Shown piece after piece: positions 56,614 through 64,000 of a DNA stretch of 64,000 nucleotides. The translations under genes were made by a program, and so were the position numbers. Position 1 is the stretch's first letter. Every line of letters begins with the position of its first letter. This stretch comes from a virus (Duplodnaviria > Caudoviricetes): the IMG/VR virus record IMGVR_UViG_3300028591_000118, positions 1-64,000 of that record; one strand, 5' to 3'. Under the pieces are notes generated by a model that ran no database searches, had not been told where the DNA came from, and was given only the letters and a program-made list of their open reading frames with translations.

Positions 56614-56918
56614 TAAATGGCGGGAATGAGTTTATACTCATTCCCGTTTTTTTATTGACTTTTTTGAAAATTTTTGATATAATATATATAGAAAGTTAAA
56701 AATAAAACTTTTCATTTCCTTTGCTTTAGTTTAAAATAAACTAAAGGAAATAAATTATCATAGCTTAAAATATGATAATGATATTCATGGTATTTTTGAT
56801 AGAAGCGGTGGACAGTGTTTTCAATTAGTCAGGTTCTTCTTTTTAAGAAGAAGTAAATCGTGTGATCTTAGATCCCCATACCGCTGCTGAAAAAAATCTG
56901 GCTAAGAAAACATATCTT

Positions 56919-56990
56919 TGGGGTGTCGCCAAGCGGTAAGGCCCAGGACTTTGACTCCTGTATCCAGTGGTTCGAATCCACTTACCCCAG
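56919..56990 (+). tRNA. tRNA-Gln(TTG)
   Basis: Cloverleaf; CAGGA-CTTTGAC-TCCTG. Confidence 0.92.
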
Positions 56991-57174
56991 TTAACTTGGA
57001 ACTTACTTTAATAGTTTTTAGAAAACAAGCTATCATATAAGATAGGCAAATCATTATGGAATAAAGTATTTTCCAAGAGGTAGAGAAATTAGAAGTAATT
57101 TCTTGAATTTTTCCTCCGAGAGCAAATGTGGGAGGTTTAAATGGATGAGCAGTAGGAAGTGACTTTAAACTCAT

Positions 57175-57218
57175 AAAAAAAATAAGGCTCGATACAATTA
57201 AGTATCGAGCCTTTTCTT
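57175..57218. terminator. Bidirectional intrinsic terminator between the tRNA-Gln unit and fliD
   Basis: AAGGCTCGATAC...GTATCGAGCCTT flanked by A and T tracts. Confidence 0.8.
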
Positions 57219-58606
57219 TATACTGTCATTCCAAATAAACCTGCTAATGAATTAGTTTGATTTTGCATTTTTGATAATGCAGTTTCCATTCTAGCAAATT
57301 TTTCATAGTATTTATCTTCCATTTCAGTTATCTTTTTATCCCATTTTTCAATCTTCTTAGTGAAATCATCATAATTAGATTTCATTTCTTTATCATGGAA
57401 TATTGTATAAGCACTATTATAGCTAGTTGATCTCATTCTATCATTTAAATCATTATACATTTTAGATGATAATTGAGTTATAAAACCTATAACTCCATTA
57501 GGATCATCAGCAATAGCTTGCTTTAATTGCTTTTCGTCTATATTATATACACCACGCTCATTTTGTTCTGTAGTAAAATAATTTCCTGTAGTAATTCCAA
57601 TTTTAGCAAGACTATATTTTTCTCCATTAATCATATATGATTGCATCATGTTATTCTTAAATAATCTACTTATATCACCAAGTAAACTATCTTTACTTAA
57701 TATACTATCTTTAATAAGTTTTTCCCATTCATCTGCTTGCTTATCGCTAATAGCATATCGTTCATCATCTGTCAATGGTTCATAATTTGATTTCTTTGCA
57801 TTATAAGCAGTATCAATCTTTCTAATAACATTATTATATTTTTCAATAAAATCTTTTACTATATCAAATATTTTATTATTAGATTGCTTATTAATTGTAG
57901 TGCTTCCCGCCTTAAATACATTTATATTCAAATCATTAATTTGAAAAGTATTTTCTTCAGATTGGAATTCCGCACCATTTAATTCAATAATAGCATCTTG
58001 ACCAACTTGTTTTGCGGCGCCCTCGCCTAGCCCTAAAGCTTCTAAGATCTCATCATTACCTTCAATAGAAAAGTTACTTTTAAGACCTGTTTTGCGAGAA
58101 GCTAAAAACAATCTACCATTACGTTCATCAAAATTTGCTTTTAAACCAACTTCACTAAGTTTCTTTGCAACATCACTCATTGACATATCTGATGTAATAC
58201 TTATATGCTTTTCCATTCCCGCATATTTTACAGTAATATCATCATTAATTCCAATAGGATAAGATTGCTTTACCTTAGCACCTGTTAAATAAGTATTAGT
58301 TGCAACTTGCTTAACAGTTAAATTTTGAATTCCGCTAAAGCTAGATCCTGAGACACTTGCTATCTGTTCATCCGCAATTTTAACATCATCTTGAACAAAA
58401 GAAGTCTCTAGTCTAGTATTAGACAAAGTATTTGTAAAGAATGAATTAATTTCTTTATTCATATCTTTCCAAGCATCTTGTTTATACTCTAATGTCTTCT
58501 GTTGTTTCCAGATCTTATCTCTACGCGCGGTATATGCAGTAGTCATCTGTTTTATGATACTCTCTGTATCAAAACCAGAAATCATTCCAGAAATTCTCAT
58601 AGCCAT
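57218..58606 (-). CDS. fliD: Flagellar filament capping protein (HAP2) homologue
   Basis: N-terminal RISGMISGFDTESIIKQM...QDAWKDMN; V.QVAT; GQDAIIELNG...EENTF; YEPLTDDE...WE; C-terminal EDKYYEKFARMETALSKMQNQ. Confidence 0.9.
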   Translation of the reverse strand: MAMRISGMISGFDTESIIKQMTTAYTARRDKIWKQQKTLEYKQDAWKDMNKEINSFFTNTLSNTRLETSFVQDDVKIADEQIASVSGSSFSGIQNLTVKQVATNTYLTGAKVKQSYPIGINDDITVKYAGMEKHISITSDMSMSDVAKKLSEVGLKANFDERNGRLFLASRKTGLKSNFSIEGNDEILEALGLGEGAAKQVGQDAIIELNGAEFQSEENTFQINDLNINVFKAGSTTINKQSNNKIFDIVKDFIEKYNNVIRKIDTAYNAKKSNYEPLTDDERYAISDKQADEWEKLIKDSILSKDSLLGDISRLFKNNMMQSYMINGEKYSLAKIGITTGNYFTTEQNERGVYNIDEKQLKQAIADDPNGVIGFITQLSSKMYNDLNDRMRSTSYNSAYTIFHDKEMKSNYDDFTKKIEKWDKKITEMEDKYYEKFARMETALSKMQNQTNSLAGLFGMTV

Positions 58607-58814
58607 ATTTTATTAACCTCCTTGTCTGCTATATTTATAAAGAAATCCATTTCTTTATAGTCTATTAAATATTAAAATTATAAAGATATAATTATCCATT
58701 TTTGCTTAATCTTATTATAACATAATTTTTTTATTTTGTCAATAAATACTTTATATTGATTTTTAAAAAAAATTATGATATAATTATTATATAATAAAAA
58801 GGAGAATTAATATT

Positions 58815-59086: not shown

Positions 59087-59896
59087 ATGAGTGTATATGC
59101 AAGTGCAGATTGGCATGGCGTTGGAGATCTTGCAAATCAAATATTAAATTATCTTAAATCAGATGATACTTTGTACTTTTTAGGAGACGCAATAGACAGA
59201 GCACCAGATGGTGTTGAAATAATGAAGAAGCTTCTTGCAGATCCTAGAATAATTTATATAAGAGGAAATCATGAAGAACTTATGGAGGAGTGTCTTCCAT
59301 ATGTATTAAAAGAAATCAATGATATAAATTATTATGGTGGTAATAATTATTATAGTTGGTATGGTAATGGAGGACAAAAAACTGCAGAAGTATTTTTTGA
59401 ACATCCAGAATGGGGCCCTCCGCTTCTAGAAGCAATTAGGAAAATGCCAACAGAACAAATATATCATTCTCCTCTTGGTCATGATGTTATTCTAGAACAT
59501 GCTGGATATACTCCTTTTGATATTCCTCATCGATCTCATATACCAACTTGGGATAGAGAACATTTTTATGATGAATGGAATAGAGGATTTACAAAAGAAG
59601 GATGTCCTAATCCTGATAAAACTTTTATTGTTCATGGTCATACTCCTGTTCAGTATCTGAAATATGATTTTGGATATAAGGGGCAAGATTCATTAACAAA
59701 AGAAGAAATGGAGGATAGGCGAAAATGGCTTTGTGGTGATTATTATAATTGTAAATCTTCATTTGTTTTAACATATTGTGATGGGCATAAAATTGATATT
59801 GATTTATGTTCTGTGGCAAGCGGGAAGGCGGTTCTTCTTAATCTTGATACATTTGAAGAAATATATTTTCAAACTAAAGTAAATAAGGAGTGGTAA
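59087..59896 (+). CDS. Calcineurin-like metallophosphoesterase (Ser/Thr phosphatase-like)
   Basis: DWHG, GDAIDR, GNHE, HAG and HGHTP motifs. Confidence 0.9.
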   Translation: MSVYASADWHGVGDLANQILNYLKSDDTLYFLGDAIDRAPDGVEIMKKLLADPRIIYIRGNHEELMEECLPYVLKEINDINYYGGNNYYSWYGNGGQKTAEVFFEHPEWGPPLLEAIRKMPTEQIYHSPLGHDVILEHAGYTPFDIPHRSHIPTWDREHFYDEWNRGFTKEGCPNPDKTFIVHGHTPVQYLKYDFGYKGQDSLTKEEMEDRRKWLCGDYYNCKSSFVLTYCDGHKIDIDLCSVASGKAVLLNLDTFEEIYFQTKVNKEW

Positions 59897-60168
59897 AAAT
59901 GATTAGATTATATAATATTAAATGGCATCTCGCAAAGGAAGAAAGGTGCGGGAAGGCCTCGGTAGATCGTACTACAATGGTTAAACTTACAGATGCTAGG
60001 GGAGAAGTTGCAGTAGATGCTAAAAGAGCATTGAATGTATTTATTAAATCTTGTGGCAATTTAAAAAAGAATGTTGTTACTGAGATTATAGAAATGGATG
60101 AAGATGGTAATCAGATTGGAGAAAAGATAACACCAACTGGAGATTCAATTATACCTATGGGGAGATAA
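59890..60168 (+). CDS. Hypothetical protein
   Basis: Operonic; start may be MIRLY at 59899. Confidence 0.6.
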   Translation: MVKMIRLYNIKWHLAKEERCGKASVDRTTMVKLTDARGEVAVDAKRALNVFIKSCGNLKKNVVTEIIEMDEDGNQIGEKITPTGDSIIPMGR

Positions 60169-60170
60169 AA

Positions 60171-60392
60171 ATGGATTATAGTTCAGAAGTAGCTTTAGCT
60201 TATACTTTTTTAAATAAGAATAATGATGATAAAAATTTAAGAGGATTGATAAATCAGTTAAAGTACTCACCTGGAATGTTACATAGTGATAAATGGAGTG
60301 TAATCTACGACTACCTCTATGATCATTATATCAATGATATTAATGTAGATGGTCTTGTGACAGGATTAAGTTATATTGCAGAAGGTTATTGA
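60171..60392 (+). CDS. Hypothetical protein
   Basis: Operonic; terminator at 60397-60445. Confidence 0.6.
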   Translation: MDYSSEVALAYTFLNKNNDDKNLRGLINQLKYSPGMLHSDKWSVIYDYLYDHYINDINVDGLVTGLSYIAEGY

Positions 60393-60666
60393 TAAATGCG
60401 GGAACCAGGTGTTGAGTGTAGCATCGACTGGATTCCCGCATTTTATTTGATTTTTATTAAAAAATATAATATAATATTATTATAGAAAAGGAAATATTAT
60501 ATGAGTAAAAATAACCTACACAAAAAAATAACTTATGAAGATAAATTTGATAGGCATTATGCTTGTTGGGTTAAAAATAATCGAAAAGCTTGGCACTTTT
60601 GGAAACATAAAACTAGAAGAGATTTCCGAAGAAAAATAAAAAAACTATTAAAAGAGGTAATTTGAA

Positions 60667-60702
60667 ATGTTGAACAAAAATTCAGAAAGAGAACTTGCAT
60701 AA
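60667..60702 (+). pseudogene. Orphaned original 5' end of the RNA ligase gene (MLNKNSERELA*)
   Basis: Has its own GAGG RBS and aligns with MLDKSGIRQLC, the start of 61776. Confidence 0.6.
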
Positions 60703-60783
60703 AATTTTTGGTCAGTCCTCGTTTATTATCTTTCTTTAACTTTTATATATTTATGAAAGATAAAATGAAAGGAACAAAATATT

Positions 60784-61773
60784 ATGGCAAAAGCTATTGA
60801 TTTAACAGGTCAAAAATTTAATCATTTAACAGTAATAGAACGAGATTTTGAAATTCAAAAAGAACATCCAAATGAACGACAAGCTTGGTGGAAAGTTTAT
60901 TGCGATGTTTGTGGACAAACAAAAAGTTTAAGAGCTAGTATTATTAAAAAAGCTCAAACTTGTGGTTGTAAAGGAAATAATGATAAAAATCCTCGGAAAC
61001 CAATTCAAATAAAACCAAAAAATATAGAAAATTTTAGAGGAATTAATTTAGAAGGACAACGATTTACAAGATTAGTTGTTTTAGAATATGCAGATGAACA
61101 ACATCAAATATTTTATAATAAAGTTCATCAAAATACTTGGAAATGTCAATGTGATTGTGGAAATATATATTATGCAACTACAGAATGTTTAAAAAGGGGT
61201 GACACTCCTTCTTGTGGTTGTATTACAAAAGAAAATAGACGAGCTCAATTAAAAGATTTATCAGGACAACGATTTGGACATTTAACTGTATTAAAATTTT
61301 TAGGAACTGTTAATCGTAATTCTAAATATTTAGTTAAATGTGATTGTGGTAAAGAATATGAAATTTATGCTCAAAATTTAACTCAAGGAAATACTATTAG
61401 TTGTGGTTGTACTAAAGAATCTCATGGAGAACAAAAAATTAGAGAAATTTTAACTTTAAATAATATTCAATTTGAAAATCAAAAAAGTTTTTCAAATTTT
61501 TATTATTCTGATACTAATGGTAAACCAAAATATGATTTTTATTTACCTAAATATAATATTTTAATTGAATATGATGGTGAACAACATTTTAAACCAATTT
61601 TTACTTGGGATAATGAAGATAGATTTAAACAAAGACAATTACACGATAAAATAAAAAATGATTATGCAATAAAACATAATTTTATTTTAATTAGAATACC
61701 ATATACACATTATAATAATTTATGTTTAAAAGATTTATTAAAAGAAAGTGATTTTATAGTAAAAGGAGAATAA
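60784..61773 (+). mobile_element. Free-standing homing-endonuclease-like gene
   Basis: Three (D/N)LxGQ(K/R)FxxLxV...C(x)CG repeats and a C-terminal Vsr/DUF559-like nuclease (KYDFYLP..ILIEYDGEQHF...IPY); very AT-rich. Confidence 0.8.
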
Positions 61774-61775
61774 TT

Positions 61776-63023
61776 ATGTTAGATAAATCAGGCATTCGAC
61801 AATTATGTTATGTAGTTAATGTTGATGAGATAAAACCAATTCCCGGTCGTGATAGAGTAGAATGTGCTAGAATTGGCGGTTGGACTTGTATGGTTCCTAA
61901 GGGGGCTTTTCAGCCAGGAGACCCCGGTATATATTTTGAGATAGATAGTCAGGTACCTCTTGATAATCCAGTATTTGAGTTTTGTGCGAAATATAAAGGA
62001 CATATCAAGACACAGAAGTTTAAGACTCCTGAGGGACAGTTCTGGTCACAGGGGCTCCTGATGCCTGCCGCAGATTTTGGTTGGTTTGTAGCCTATACTG
62101 ATGAATATAATTATATCTATGATAAAGAAGGTAACTCTTATCAGCCTGGGACTGATTCTGCTTTTCTTACTGAAAAACTTGGTGTAACTTATTATGAGGT
62201 AGAAGATAATAAGAGAAAAGCAAAAGTAAATCCTGACGCTAAGATAAATGCTGCTTTAGCTAGACATCCTAAATTAGCAAAGAAATATGGTAAATTTATT
62301 AAAAAGTATAAGTGGGCAAAAGCTATATTCTTATTTATCTTTGGAAGAAAGAAACCTTCTAGCTGGCCTGCTGAAGTAAAAAAGACTGATGAAGAAAGAA
62401 TAGAAAATAGACTCTTTACTCTTGAAGCTAGAGATTTGAAATGGATAGCTACTGAAAAGATAGATGGATCTAGCTCAACTTATCATCTTCGTAGAGGTAA
62501 TAAGTTTAAGAAACCCGAATATTTTGTATGTAGCAGAAATGTTGTTTTTGATACTCCTGAAAAAGCTAAAAAGAATTATTATGCTGATACAATAGGAAGT
62601 AATATTTGGATTGAAATGTCTGAAAAATATGACATAAAGAATAAACTTCAGCAGTTGCTTGATGAAAGACCTAGTGCTAATTGGGTTACCCTTCAGGGAG
62701 AAACTTTTGGGGCAGGCGTTCAGAAGCGTGATTATGGTATGAAGGATCGTGACTTTAGAGCATTTAATCTTATATATTCAGATTGTGGTAGAGTTGATAC
62801 TCTTACTATGAAAAATATACTGGACAAAGTGGGAATACCTTCTGTTCCTATCATAGCAAAAATTCAACTTCCTGTAACAATAGATCGGTTAAGAGATTAT
62901 GTTCATAAGCAGAAGTCTGAAATAGATGGCGGGATGCGAGAAGGCATAGTCTTCCGTAGCCTTGATGGAACTGACAGTTTTAAGTGTGTAGATCCAGAGT
63001 ATTTAATGAAATATCATGGATAA
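61776..63023 (+). CDS. RNA ligase (DRB0094/Rnl2-like)
   Basis: IYFEIDS N-domain, motif I TEKIDGSS, LQGE, REGIV and SFK. Confidence 0.88.
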   Translation: MLDKSGIRQLCYVVNVDEIKPIPGRDRVECARIGGWTCMVPKGAFQPGDPGIYFEIDSQVPLDNPVFEFCAKYKGHIKTQKFKTPEGQFWSQGLLMPAADFGWFVAYTDEYNYIYDKEGNSYQPGTDSAFLTEKLGVTYYEVEDNKRKAKVNPDAKINAALARHPKLAKKYGKFIKKYKWAKAIFLFIFGRKKPSSWPAEVKKTDEERIENRLFTLEARDLKWIATEKIDGSSSTYHLRRGNKFKKPEYFVCSRNVVFDTPEKAKKNYYADTIGSNIWIEMSEKYDIKNKLQQLLDERPSANWVTLQGETFGAGVQKRDYGMKDRDFRAFNLIYSDCGRVDTLTMKNILDKVGIPSVPIIAKIQLPVTIDRLRDYVHKQKSEIDGGMREGIVFRSLDGTDSFKCVDPEYLMKYHG

Positions 63024-63097
63024 TTGCAAGCGGGAGGGATCTCCTTCCCGCTTGACAAAATAAAAAATTTTTGTTATAATATAATAAAGATAATAAT

Positions 63098-63343
63098 ATG
63101 AATATAAATTTAGAGATTAATGATTTAAAAACAACTATAGATGGATTAAATAATGCTATTATTGCTTATAGTGATATTAGAAGGGCTATTTGGTTAATGG
63201 GCGGAGTTCCTGAAGGAATGAATCCAAAATGGAATAAAGTTATTAATAAAGAAGCAAATTCTTTTGACGATTTAGTATCAAAATTTGATGAAAGAATAAA
63301 AGCATTAAAAGAAATTTATAATCAATTAATAAAAATGGAATAA
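63098..63343 (+). CDS. Hypothetical protein
   Basis: SigA promoter; weak RBS. Confidence 0.55.
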   Translation: MNINLEINDLKTTIDGLNNAIIAYSDIRRAIWLMGGVPEGMNPKWNKVINKEANSFDDLVSKFDERIKALKEIYNQLIKME

Positions 63344-63350
63344 TAATATT

Positions 63351-63422
63351 GCCGTCGTGGCTCAATGGCAGAGCAACGCACCTGTAATGCGTAGGTTGTG
63401 GGTTCGACTCCCTCCGGCGGCT
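63351..63422 (+). tRNA. tRNA-Thr(TGT), C at position 33
   Basis: ACGCA-CCTGTAA-TGCGT; acceptor GCCGTCG/CGGCGGC. Confidence 0.8.
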
Positions 63423-63430
63423 TTAAATAA

Positions 63431-63469
63431 TGGGGTGTGGCTCAGTTTGGCAGAGCGCTAGATTTGGGT
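63431..63469 (+). tRNA. 5' half of tRNA-Pro(TGG), interrupted at the end of the anticodon loop
   Basis: TGGGGTGTGGCTCAGTTTGGCAGAGCGCTAGATTTGGGT is followed by unrelated sequence; no 3' half in the window. Confidence 0.75.
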
Positions 63470-63501
63470 GAAAAACTTTAATATAAATTAGTTATTTCTC
63501 T

Positions 63502-64000
63502 ATGGATGAAACATTAATCCGAGGAGATGTGAATGAACTCCAATGTATTTTAGATTTTCAAAAAAGAGGTTTTTATTGTAGTATTCCCTTTAGTGGATCT
63601 TGTCGTTATGATTTAGTAGTAGATATAAATAATAATTTATATCGTATTCAATGTAAATCTTCTGTTTATCATCAAGAAGATGGTACATTAAGAATGTCTA
63701 CTACGCGACAAACTACTAATACACAAAAAACTACAAAATATTCTTATTCTAAAGAAGAAATTGATTATTTTTATACTTCTTGGAAAGAGTACAGTTTTTT
63801 AATTCCTGTTGAAGAAGCTTCTACAGAAAAATATTTAAGAGTAGAACCTCCAAAAAATGGAATTCAAGCAACAATGTCTATTGCTCATGATTATTTATTA
63901 GATAATGTAATAGAATCAATTAAAAATAACAAACCTATATCTAAATATATAAATAATCGTTTTATTTCTTATTCTGAAAATGAGCCAGAAAAATTATGGA
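63502..64000 (+). CDS. Group-I-intron-type PD-(D/E)XK homing endonuclease (I-Ssp6803I-like), partial
   Basis: RGDVNE...SIPF...RYDLVVD...RIQCKSS...IDYF; open to the window end. Confidence 0.8.
   Translation, partial: MDETLIRGDVNELQCILDFQKRGFYCSIPFSGSCRYDLVVDINNNLYRIQCKSSVYHQEDGTLRMSTTRQTTNTQKTTKYSYSKEEIDYFYTSWKEYSFLIPVEEASTEKYLRVEPPKNGIQATMSIAHDYLLDNVIESIKNNKPISKYINNRFISYSENEPEKLW

Follow-up and report, generated by a model that had tools for sequence, protein, structure and literature searches.

A flagellar filament cap homologue resident in large phages is paired with a flagellin and carries a flagellin-type leader

We found that a viral DNA record of 122 kb, IMGVR_UViG_3300028591_000118 (G000 hereafter), carries a complete gene, fliD, at 57218-58606 on the minus strand, which encodes a 462-aa homologue of the flagellar filament cap protein FliD (HAP2), and that the same phage carries a complete flagellin gene. 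The window, namely, the whole stretch of DNA that was first annotated, comprises the first 64,000 nt of this record, and the flagellin gene lies past its end. The fliD gene is a genuine, ameliorated, phage-resident gene and is neither a host contaminant nor an assembly chimera. In the explanation that we favour, with moderate confidence, fliD and the flagellin gene constitute a conserved two-gene filament module whose products would be made in the infected cell and would leave it through the host flagellar apparatus.

An initial annotation, made from the letters of the window, had recognised a full-length FliD-like open reading frame (ORF), and the profile search that it proposed bore this out. 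FliD_N (PF02465) matched residues 10-104 at 57.9 bits (cut-off, 24.8), covering profile positions 1-96 of 97, and FliD_C (PF07195) matched residues 202-449 at 93.6 bits (cut-off, 25.4), covering positions 1-236 of 236. An AF2 model with a pLDDT of 85.8 predicted helices at residues 14-64 and 405-457 and beta domains at residues 71-244, that is, terminal coiled-coil helices (D0/D1 legs) together with D2-D3 heads. In Foldseek searches, the model matched 6SIH with a TM of 0.65 and an E value of 1e-19, and further matches to 9GNZ, 9M6H, and 5H5V represented full-length solved caps and cap-filament complexes. Cellular Lachnospiraceae FliD shares both the FliD_N plus FliD_C architecture and the predicted legs and heads; compared with it, the phage protein is 30-250 residues shorter, owing to small loop deletions only, and has gained no new domain. 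No PHROGs family corresponds to it. The N-terminal segment is kept in the phage FliD clade described below, with M1, G7, S10, G11, and T14 being invariant. The GGAGG ribosome-binding site was likewise verified at 58621-58617, 10 nt 5' of the ATG. Taken with synteny and the FliD tree, these profile and model-based results make it reasonably likely that the ORF at 57218-58606 encodes a functional flagellar filament cap.

Several lines of data located fliD in the phage genome. Its GC content of 29.2% and GC3 of 17.5% compare with 31.7 ± 4.3% and 19.4 ± 7.0%, respectively, for phage ORFs of at least 150 aa. The hexamer TCCCGC (GCGGGA signature) occurred 168 times in the 122-kb record versus about 10 times expected, and two copies lie inside fliD, at 57905 and 58217; the AT-rich, phage-like codons and the two signature sites reported initially were thus confirmed by counts. 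The record also encodes a portal, a terminase, a sigma factor, a replisome, and NrdD. The two checks on assembly proposed at the outset, read coverage and syntenic copies in related phages, gave concordant results. Logan contigs were broken at the repeated promoter elements flanking the fliD segment, and depth together with piece-wise agreement was used; in each of three independent samples, the fliD unitig and the adjoining phage DNA had equal depth (about 11, about 4.5, and about 22-25). Furthermore, the synteny of fliD with a phosphatase gene and an RNA ligase gene holds in two related phages, G001 and G002, whose copies are ~50% identical, and the relatives carrying syntenic fliD are phages of 142-146 kb. 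No match to integrase or recombinase families (Phage_integrase and Resolvase) was obtained in G000, G001, the complete genome G002, or a further relative, G004. We consider it fairly probable that the phage is a large lytic-type phage of rumen or gut Lachnospiraceae, from a lineage of roughly 140-150 kb.

The phylogeny against host FliDs, also proposed initially, placed the protein in a deep phage-type clade of 33 members (SH-aLRT 100; stem length, 0.49) nested in the Lachnospiraceae FliDs. In 185,579 species genomes, no full-length cellular match exceeded 38% identity, and no near-identical host gene was detected. This divergence was spread evenly over the domains and was not focused at an interface. 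Two other members, P0016 and P0021, lie on contigs of 139-145 kb, and that size alone would mark them as phage-borne; the FliD of G004 is a 308-aa mini-FliD devoid of most of the head. A metagenome scan with a single FliD protein as the query returned no match, and a scan with a FliD alignment yielded a single additional phage-type locus, L097, from the phage already represented by G001. The FliD records listed in GenBank under "Bacteriophage sp." were rejected as phage genes; they are bacterial fragments, and one of them, MT836129, shares 99% identity with Roseburia faecis DNA. Matches to Listeria "phage" sequences showed 25% identity and were on short, unannotated contigs. Selection was judged from natural variants, as synonymous sites are saturated among G000, G001, and G002 at ~50% protein identity; eight of the nine best-supported variants in fliD were synonymous. 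The fliD gene has thus long been conserved in this phage lineage.

The initial annotation had described FliD as standing alone. Inside the window, no second flagellar gene was found, in agreement with that description; genome-wide it fails, because a complete flagellin gene (Flagellin_N, 147 bits; Flagellin_C, 87 bits) occupies record positions 64757-66031 on the plus strand, 6 kb from fliD. Flagellin and FliD were both present in all three near-complete relatives, G001, G002 (100% complete, with terminal repeats), and G004. The location of the flagellin gene differs between relatives, and so does the size of its product: the G000 protein has 424 aa and includes an outer domain, whereas those of G001 and G002 are minimal, at 270-272 aa. 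The G000 flagellin is host-like, at 70-74% identity, and, with a GC content of 39.5%, is less ameliorated, which suggests repeated exchange.

Searches for rod, hook, and junction families and for CsrA, FliW, FlaG, and FlgM found none in G000, G001, G002, and G004. Similarly, FliS was absent from G000, G001, G002, G003, and G004; in G001 and G002, weak matches to FliS lay inside the FliD ORF, scored below the cut-off, and were rejected. As the searches turned up neither a phage FliS nor another chaperone, export of the phage FliD would depend on host chaperones. The usual context of cellular fliD, a flagellar operon with fliS downstream, is typical rather than defining and does not recur in the phage. 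In cellular Lachnospiraceae, fliD is translationally coupled to an upstream gene ending in ...LVDEKR, in a FlaG-like position, whereas the phage gene is monocistronic.

The fliD unit has its own promoter and terminator, runs opposite to its neighbours as first noted, and is situated among accessory and nucleic-acid genes beside the tail-fibre cluster. Its promoter, at 58742-58714 on the minus strand, is of the sigma-A type and consists of TTGACA, a 17-nt spacer, and TG-n-TATAAT, with an extended -10 and no mismatch to the consensus (12 of 12 positions). This perfect site was overlooked in the first reading, which had instead proposed AAGCA at 58707-58703 as a variant of a late promoter; AAGCA lies just 3' of the -10 element, at the expected transcription start. 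The absence of a SigD-like box 5' of fliD was upheld. Perfect sigma-A sites are confined to eight in 122 kb, and besides the fliD promoter they stand at the start of early cassettes, of the phage sigma-factor gene, and of the unit that faces flagellin. That rightward unit (63052-64000 and beyond the window, plus strand) begins with a perfect site at 63052-63080, and the plus strand showed no terminator-like site between 63263 and the flagellin start. Extended -10 promoters are also kept at the equivalent place in G001 and G002. Judged by promoter class alone, fliD would be expressed early in infection.

At the distal end, a bidirectional intrinsic terminator with a 12-bp stem at 57184-57213, whose minus-strand tail reads ATTTTTTTTA, ends both fliD and a converging unit on the plus strand (56655-56991). 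In the latter, a promoter scan located a promoter at 56655-56683, and ARAGORN and Rfam (tRNA, 58 bits) identified a tRNA-Gln gene at 56918-56991. The shared terminator of the initial annotation accordingly stands as far as the hairpin is concerned, which scores on both strands, with the correction that the converging partner is a tRNA-Gln gene and not a protein gene. A 90-aa ORF at 56902-57174 on the minus strand, considered as a possible chaperone gene, was dismissed as spurious because it overlaps tRNA-Gln.

The 5' untranslated region of fliD contains a hairpin at 58636-58659 (minus strand) with a 10-bp stem and a UGGA loop (58646-58649) ~36-42 nt before the ATG, a candidate first CsrA site. 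A candidate second site is the Shine-Dalgarno sequence CAAGGAGG at 58617-58624 (minus strand), read from the sequence, which overlaps the ribosome-binding site. Flagellin genes of phages and cells alike are preceded by the same element, as ACAAGGAGG or TCAAGGAGG. In G001 and G002, the fliD hairpins retain the GGA loop with changed stem letters. Such leader hairpins occur at only 5 of 167 phage ORFs, fliD and flagellin among them, and the flagellin hairpin has an AAGGAA loop and a folding z of -3.2. GGA-hairpin leaders were found on both fliD and flagellin in three phages and on eight of the nine closest cellular flagellins found; the cellular fliD genes of Lachnospiraceae had no such free leader. 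The B. subtilis hag leader combines a CsrA hairpin site with a Shine-Dalgarno site. Like CsrA-controlled flagellin leaders of Firmicutes, the leaders of phage fliD and flagellin place the loop GGA ~20-25 nt 5' of a GGA Shine-Dalgarno; unlike them, the leader in the phage sits on fliD as well, where CsrA binding is putative. All five candidate host-type genomes carry csrA, and CsrA binds a stem-loop in fliC 5' untranslated regions of gut Clostridia (PMC13418256). Translation of fliD is thus probably subject to the host CsrA/FliW checkpoint, as read from a motif known from three phage examples per gene.

We propose that the phage probably supplies both parts for growing or regrowing the filament of the infected cell. 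Host RNA polymerase would read fliD from the consensus sigma-A promoter, of the class that heads phage early cassettes, and the two-site leader (GGA-loop hairpin plus GGA Shine-Dalgarno) would subject translation to the host CsrA/FliW checkpoint. FliD would then be exported through the host flagellar type III apparatus, cap hook-junction or broken-filament ends, and polymerise phage as well as host flagellin. A cap together with flagellin is the exact set required where a basal body is already in place and a filament is to grow or regrow, so that the flagella of the infected cell may be kept growing, or altered in make-up, once host flagellar gene expression is lost. This scheme assumes that the phage FliD, only ~38% identical to known cellular FliDs, is compatible with host flagellin and junction proteins, and a new filament would benefit a lytic phage only given a long enough latent period. 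A bolder version, to which we would give slightly less than an even chance, is that a private, streamlined cap, rewired onto a flagellin-type CsrA leader and combined with an exchangeable flagellin, allows the phage to seize the distal end of the flagellum, re-capping sheared or nascent filaments and feeding in phage subunits during the silencing of the host flagellar genes. In cyanophages, a phage copy of psbA, which encodes a part that the host machine uses up, keeps that machine running after host shut-off. The logic proposed here would be alike by analogy, applied to a motility organelle and to exported, extracellular products.

A phage-supplied filament protein, expected to be assembled by the host apparatus and so to alter the host flagellum, has likewise been described in FRphi of Enterobacter (Walker et al., Nat Microbiol 2026, PMC13418256; Wiegand et al. 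preprint, PMC10705468). FRphi is temperate and carries a flagellin, fliC^P, together with TldR, a nuclease-dead TnpB that acts as an RNA-guided repressor of host fliC (PMC13418256, PMC10705468). By comparison, the phage studied here infects Firmicutes, is of the lytic type with a genome of roughly 150 kb, and adds a cap protein, no FliD having been reported for FRphi. In a search for TldR/TnpB (PF07282), zinc-ribbon matches reached at most 18.6 bits versus a cut-off of 26.3, and none was in G000. A rumen virome survey has listed viral "auxiliary" fliC and fliD of lytic rumen viruses in a one-sentence entry (Microbiome 2025, PMC11740651). Those viruses share habitat and gene names with ours and are probably the same or related phages; the entry gives no gene-level conservation, pairing, signals, phylogeny, or mechanism.

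The same exported cap and flagellin could serve a different benefit, namely, receptor remodelling by a flagellotropic phage, for superinfection exclusion or anti-trapping. The filament would be changed or re-capped to deny it to competing phages, as the initial annotation had suggested in part, or to keep the phage's own progeny from sticking to it. The strong difference between the flagellins of relatives is what would be expected if the filament surface matters, the host likeness and weaker amelioration of the G000 flagellin hint at repeated exchange, and the tail-fibre cluster adjoins fliD. For the FRphi prophage, too, superinfection exclusion was the hypothesis examined first, yet it was not borne out there (PMC13418256). 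Flagellin joins at the distal tip only, so the surface of an existing filament would persist through a lytic cycle; no repressor of host flagellin (TldR/TnpB, FlgM, or CsrA) was found, and use of a flagellar receptor by these phages is hypothetical. We therefore regard receptor remodelling as unlikely, while sustained or altered filament growth is the preferred reading.

The initial annotation had offered, as one option, that the phage replaces or poisons the host cap to alter the flagellum. As a general action on the host filament, this idea survives in the module proposed here; its lone-cap form is disfavoured. A dominant-negative cap would displace or block the host cap, growth would stop, and flagellin would leak, leaving an immobilised cell or a secretion route. 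The distance of the phage clade from cellular FliDs, the head-domain loop deletions, and the mini-FliD of G004 might be taken in that sense. All cap domains are nevertheless kept, including the flagellin-contacting terminal helices, with full-length Pfam and structure matches, and the divergence is not concentrated at an interface. Flagellin is also retained in every near-complete relative, which would make little sense if polymerisation were blocked and speaks for a constructive module of cap plus subunit. A poisoning cap is accordingly improbable.

More improbable still is the other option of the initial annotation, a virion component, in which case FliD, perhaps with flagellin, would form part of the particle and bind flagellar tips, acting as fibre or docking protein. 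The consensus host-type promoter, the gene's own terminator, the flagellin-type GGA-hairpin leader, and the accessory and nucleic-acid gene surroundings speak against a late virion protein, as do the monocistronic arrangement opposite to the structural genes and the variable position of the partner flagellin among relatives. The fibre cluster does adjoin fliD, at 45-56 kb, and the head domains weakly and partially resemble phage sheath and baseplate proteins (TM of at most 0.2); nevertheless, a viral structure library contained no full-length FliD-like fold, and the protein has no fusion to a tail or fibre domain. An artefact or passenger, that is, a mis-joined host fragment or a recent capture without a role for the phage, is scarcely credible: short-read unitigs do break around the fliD segment, and bacterial fragments do occur among public "phage" FliD records, but relatives that were assembled independently, one of them a complete genome with terminal repeats, share the arrangement, and matched depth, phage-like composition and signature motif, the lack of a close cellular copy, and a deep, intact clade with mostly synonymous variation all oppose it.

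Experimentally shown cases of phage-supplied flagellin have so far been restricted to temperate enterobacterial prophages, which remodel the flagellum of the lysogen. Here, cap and subunit occur together, and without any repressor against the host's own flagellin having been found, in a lytic-type lineage of abundant motile Firmicutes of the rumen and gut. If the proposed filament module is real, motility would join photosynthesis and nucleotide metabolism among the host functions that phages sustain or re-tool, and if the cap takeover holds, the motility or filament surface of the infected cell would be a phage-controlled trait in lytic infection. The compact, diverged phage cap, apparently serving different flagellins, would then be a natural experiment in cap-flagellin compatibility, and the flagellin-type leader on fliD would offer a testable case of a phage gene plugged into the CsrA/FliW checkpoint.

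On the minus strand, the 57218-58606 ORF codes for a 462-residue protein, in which Pfam searches, as proposed in the initial annotation, detected both FliD_N, at residues 10-104 with 57.9 bits, and FliD_C, at residues 202-449 with 93.6 bits, each over the whole profile and well above its curated cut-off. The AlphaFold2 model, based on an alignment of 31 relatives, had a mean pLDDT of 85.8 and comprised long terminal helices (residues 14-64 and 405-457) and beta-rich heads (71-244). Foldseek matched this model to solved full-length caps and cap-filament complexes, namely Campylobacter 6SIH (E 1e-19, TM 0.65), Salmonella 9GNZ, FliD-FliC 9M6H, and the E. coli D1-D2-D3 structure 5H5V. Compared with cellular Lachnospiraceae FliDs, the phage protein differed only by small head loop deletions and the loss of 11 residues after position 357; it carried no extra domain, and divergence was uniform across all regions. 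Therefore, the ORF encodes a complete but streamlined cap protein. Every FliD feature that could be tested was present, and the genomic context differed from the cellular operon. PHROGs contained no family for the protein, and the viral structure library gave no full-length match to its model. The best-covered match among GenBank "phage" records, MT836129.1 (locus L200; "UNVERIFIED: Bacteriophage sp.", human faeces), was rejected as a bacterial fragment filed as phage: its DNA is 99% identical to the Roseburia faecis chromosome across ~7.5 kb, and FliD is the only thing it has in common with the phage.

The composition of fliD (GC 29.2%, GC3 17.5%) resembled that of the longer phage ORFs (31.7 ± 4.3% and 19.4 ± 7.0%, respectively); GC was 42-55% in four of five cellular fliD genes checked and 31.8% in the fifth, from Lachnobacterium bovis. 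The hexamer GCGGGA/TCCCGC occurs 168 times in the 122-kb record versus 9.7 ± 3.4 expected under a first-order Markov model, a 17-fold excess on both strands, and twice within fliD (57905 and 58217), which is the phage-typical density. Contigs from four public runs were compared for depth: the unitig that holds tRNA-Gln and fliD (56671-58741) matched the flanking phage unitigs in each sample (~11 in the possible source sample, ~4.5 and ~22-25 in two independent bovine-gut studies), and unitig breaks fell exclusively at repeated promoter elements. FliDs 52% and 49% identical to the present one are encoded on two related viral contigs, G001 (146 kb) and G002 (142 kb), with fliD likewise divergently arranged beside a NinI-like phosphatase and an RNA ligase. 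Phylogenetically, 31 database proteins (452-463 aa) and two viral copies formed a phage-type clade (SH-aLRT 100; stem 0.49 substitutions per site) nested within Lachnospiraceae FliDs; the three confirmed phage copies were spread over two of the clade's main sub-branches, of which there are three, and the remaining one includes a protein from a contig of phage-like size (139 kb). Among 185,579 species genomes, the closest full-length cellular FliD was only 38% identical, the best matches being from Roseburia faecis, Anaerobium, Lachnobacterium bovis and Agathobacter. Eight of the nine best-supported natural variants of fliD in bovine samples were synonymous third-position changes (the ninth was V230I), about a 1-in-10,000 outcome if roughly a quarter of random changes are synonymous. 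Given this composition, depth, synteny, phylogeny, distance from cells and selection, it is very unlikely that fliD is a contaminant, chimera or passenger, and it is a real, conserved phage feature. The initial annotation's view of an ameliorated, phage-like gene rather than a host contaminant thus held for GC, GC3 and hexamer density, as it did for syntenic copies, phylogeny against Lachnospiraceae FliD and read coverage, by which it had proposed to check the gene.

The same annotation had described fliD as standing alone; beyond base 64000, however, the record encodes a complete flagellin (64757-66031, plus strand; 424 aa; Flagellin_N 147 bits and Flagellin_C 87 bits, both complete). Flagellin and FliD were both present in all three near-complete relatives: G001 (93% complete), G002 (100%, with terminal repeats) and G004 (85%). 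No rod, hook or junction proteins, CsrA, FliW, FlaG, FlgM or FliS were found in the searched phage records, so the flagellar genes carried encode exactly the two distal extracellular filament components. The histories of the two genes differ. The flagellin of the present phage is 70-74% identical to cellular Lachnospiraceae flagellins over its full length, with a GC of 39.5% at the top of the phage's range, and those of G001 and G002 are minimal (270-272 aa); from these observations, the flagellin looks exchangeable, and the cap is a phage gene of long standing. Furthermore, a 28-kb fragment of a relative, G003, encodes a 488-aa FliD (L013:1465-2931) outside the phage clade; its sister is the FliD of a Lachnospiraceae sequence from sheep rumen (support 99). 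This is a separate capture, and related phages thus took up fliD at least twice. In G004, a 308-aa mini-FliD (L016:1210-2136) keeps the terminal regions and lacks most of the head domains, and the flagellin frame (L011) is broken by one in-frame TAG.

Around the flagellin, a 92-aa ORF follows directly (record 66038-66316, or 2038-2316 of L007, a stretch past the window); it scored 32.8 bits against the PTS HPr phosphorylation-site family (cut-off 23) and is kept in G002. Directly upstream of the flagellin lie two tRNA-like elements with a hydrophobic 56-aa ORF between them. The first (64179-64302; L006:917-1040) is 124 nt long and scored 43 bits against the Rfam tRNA model, uncalled by ARAGORN; the second (~64502-64672; L006:1240-1410) combines a T-arm like that of a tRNA with a long insert.

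The fliD mRNA leader can fold into a 10-bp hairpin with a UGGA loop (58636-58659), ~36-42 nt ahead of the ATG, and the Shine-Dalgarno ACAAGGAGG lies ~15 nt past it. Equivalent hairpins precede fliD in G001 and G002, where the stem letters are changed and the GGA loop is retained, and the leaders of the three phage flagellins are built in the same way (loop region CACAAGGATGTG in G002). Folding of the present flagellin leader beat 200 of 200 shuffles (z = -3.2). A hairpin of at least 6 bp with a GGA loop was found in the upstream zone of only 5 of 167 ORFs of the present phage, and that both flagellar genes are among these five has a chance of ~7 in 10,000. Of nine leaders from the nearest cellular flagellins found (56-65% identity, in five genomes of Lachnospiraceae), eight carry the same hairpin followed by TTCAAGGAGGAA. 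All five candidate host-type genomes contain csrA, mostly no more than a few kb from flagellin genes. Cellular fliD has no free leader: in most of 29 loci, no more than ~10-20 nt separate its start from the upstream gene's stop. In Bacillus subtilis, CsrA represses hag mRNA, which has a hairpin-presented GGA and a second GGA in the Shine-Dalgarno; the phage fliD leader resembles such CsrA-repressed flagellin mRNAs in both. In gut Clostridia, CsrA was enriched on a stem-loop in the fliC 5′UTR (PMC13418256). We conclude that the phage flagellin retained a host-type leader and that the phage put fliD under one of like kind, with candidate CsrA sites.

Ahead of fliD stands a TG-extended, perfect TTGACA-17-TATAAT promoter (58742-58714, minus strand), and extended -10 promoters occupy the matching place in G001 and G002. 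Only eight perfect sites exist in 122 kb, each just upstream of a gene or RNA unit: four ahead of small-ORF cassettes (17-22 kb), and one each ahead of the phage sigma-factor gene, an RNA island (43.4 kb), fliD, and a rightward unit reaching flagellin (the site at 63052-63080), with no plus-strand terminator detected from 63263 to the flagellin start. The AAGCA element previously read as a late-promoter variant lies just downstream of the fliD -10, at the expected transcription start, and is not a separate promoter. A terminator hairpin with a 12-bp stem (57184-57213), scoring on both strands, is common to fliD and a converging promoter and tRNA-Gln unit; given that unit, a 90-aa ORF downstream of fliD was dismissed as spurious. 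With its own perfect promoter and terminator, fliD is predicted from the sequence to be a self-contained monocistronic unit for host-type RNA polymerase, and by analogy with large Firmicute phages encoding their own sigma factor it probably belongs to the early class. Repeated promoter elements of ~30-40 nt bound gene cassettes (window 56655-56695, 58713-58790 and 63052-63083); unitigs of the four runs break at them, and many contigs jump between them. These elements may drive cassette shuffling; compare the fliD-flagellin spacing of 4-6 kb in the present phage and G001 with 35 kb in G002.

The IMG/VR record (122,314 bp, estimated 78% complete; the window is its first 64 kb) encodes a portal, large terminase, sigma factor, tail fibre proteins, topoisomerase II, NAD-dependent ligase, DnaB-type helicase, primase, RecJ, Dda, a 1324-aa DNA polymerase, NrdD, several homing endonucleases and an endolysin. 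Searches of it and of three relatives, one of them complete with terminal repeats, turned up neither integrase nor serine recombinase families. This gene content suggests a large phage of lytic type. Around the flagellar genes (window 59087-63023; L007:2806-3847) lie an RNA ligase, an AAA_33 (polynucleotide-kinase-like) protein and two metallophosphatases, a set resembling a repair kit for RNA or tRNA; HNH, GIY-YIG and PD-(D/E)XK endonucleases also occur in this region.

We favor, with some confidence, a route in which cap and flagellin are exported from the infected cell. Both would be expressed during infection, and the host CsrA/FliW checkpoint probably controls their translation, such that products would be made only where the flagellar export apparatus is active; exported through it, the cap would assemble on hook-junction or broken-filament ends and polymerise flagellin. 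Cap and flagellin are exactly the set for filament growth or regrowth on an existing basal body, and nothing beyond it is carried. Within this route, the most economical benefit, tentatively preferred over others, would be that the infected cell's flagella go on growing once the host no longer expresses its flagellar genes, akin to cyanophage psbA; the chief alternative benefit would be an altered filament surface. Receptor remodelling or exclusion, with which the variability of flagellins between relatives agrees, is possible but unlikely, because the filament grows at the tip only and no repressor of host flagellin was found. That the cap poisons host filaments is improbable, as the flagellin gene is retained and the cap architecture intact. 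Still less probable is a virion protein: the gene's promoter class and orientation speak against it, as do its monocistronic layout, its translational leader and the absence of any fusion to tail domains. An artefact or passenger is scarcely credible in view of synteny, depth, composition and selection.

The closest studied case to this cap and flagellin system is FRphi, the Flagellin Remodelling prophage of Enterobacter, which swaps host flagellin through its own flagellin and the RNA-guided repressor TldR (PMC13418256, PMC10705468). Unlike FRphi, the present phages lack TldR and an integration module, infect a different host phylum, and add a cap. In the literature searched, the phrase "phage-encoded flagellin" occurred in TldR papers only, and one sentence of a rumen virome survey (PMC11740651) names "lytic-specific fliC and fliD" as viral auxiliary genes and analyses them no further; such genes are thus catalogued but uncharacterised. 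A filament cap private to a lytic phage and placed under a leader of flagellin type would surprise specialists, and the hypotheses are directly testable. With the function that we infer for them, phage cap and flagellin extend a known theme, phage-driven flagellar remodelling.
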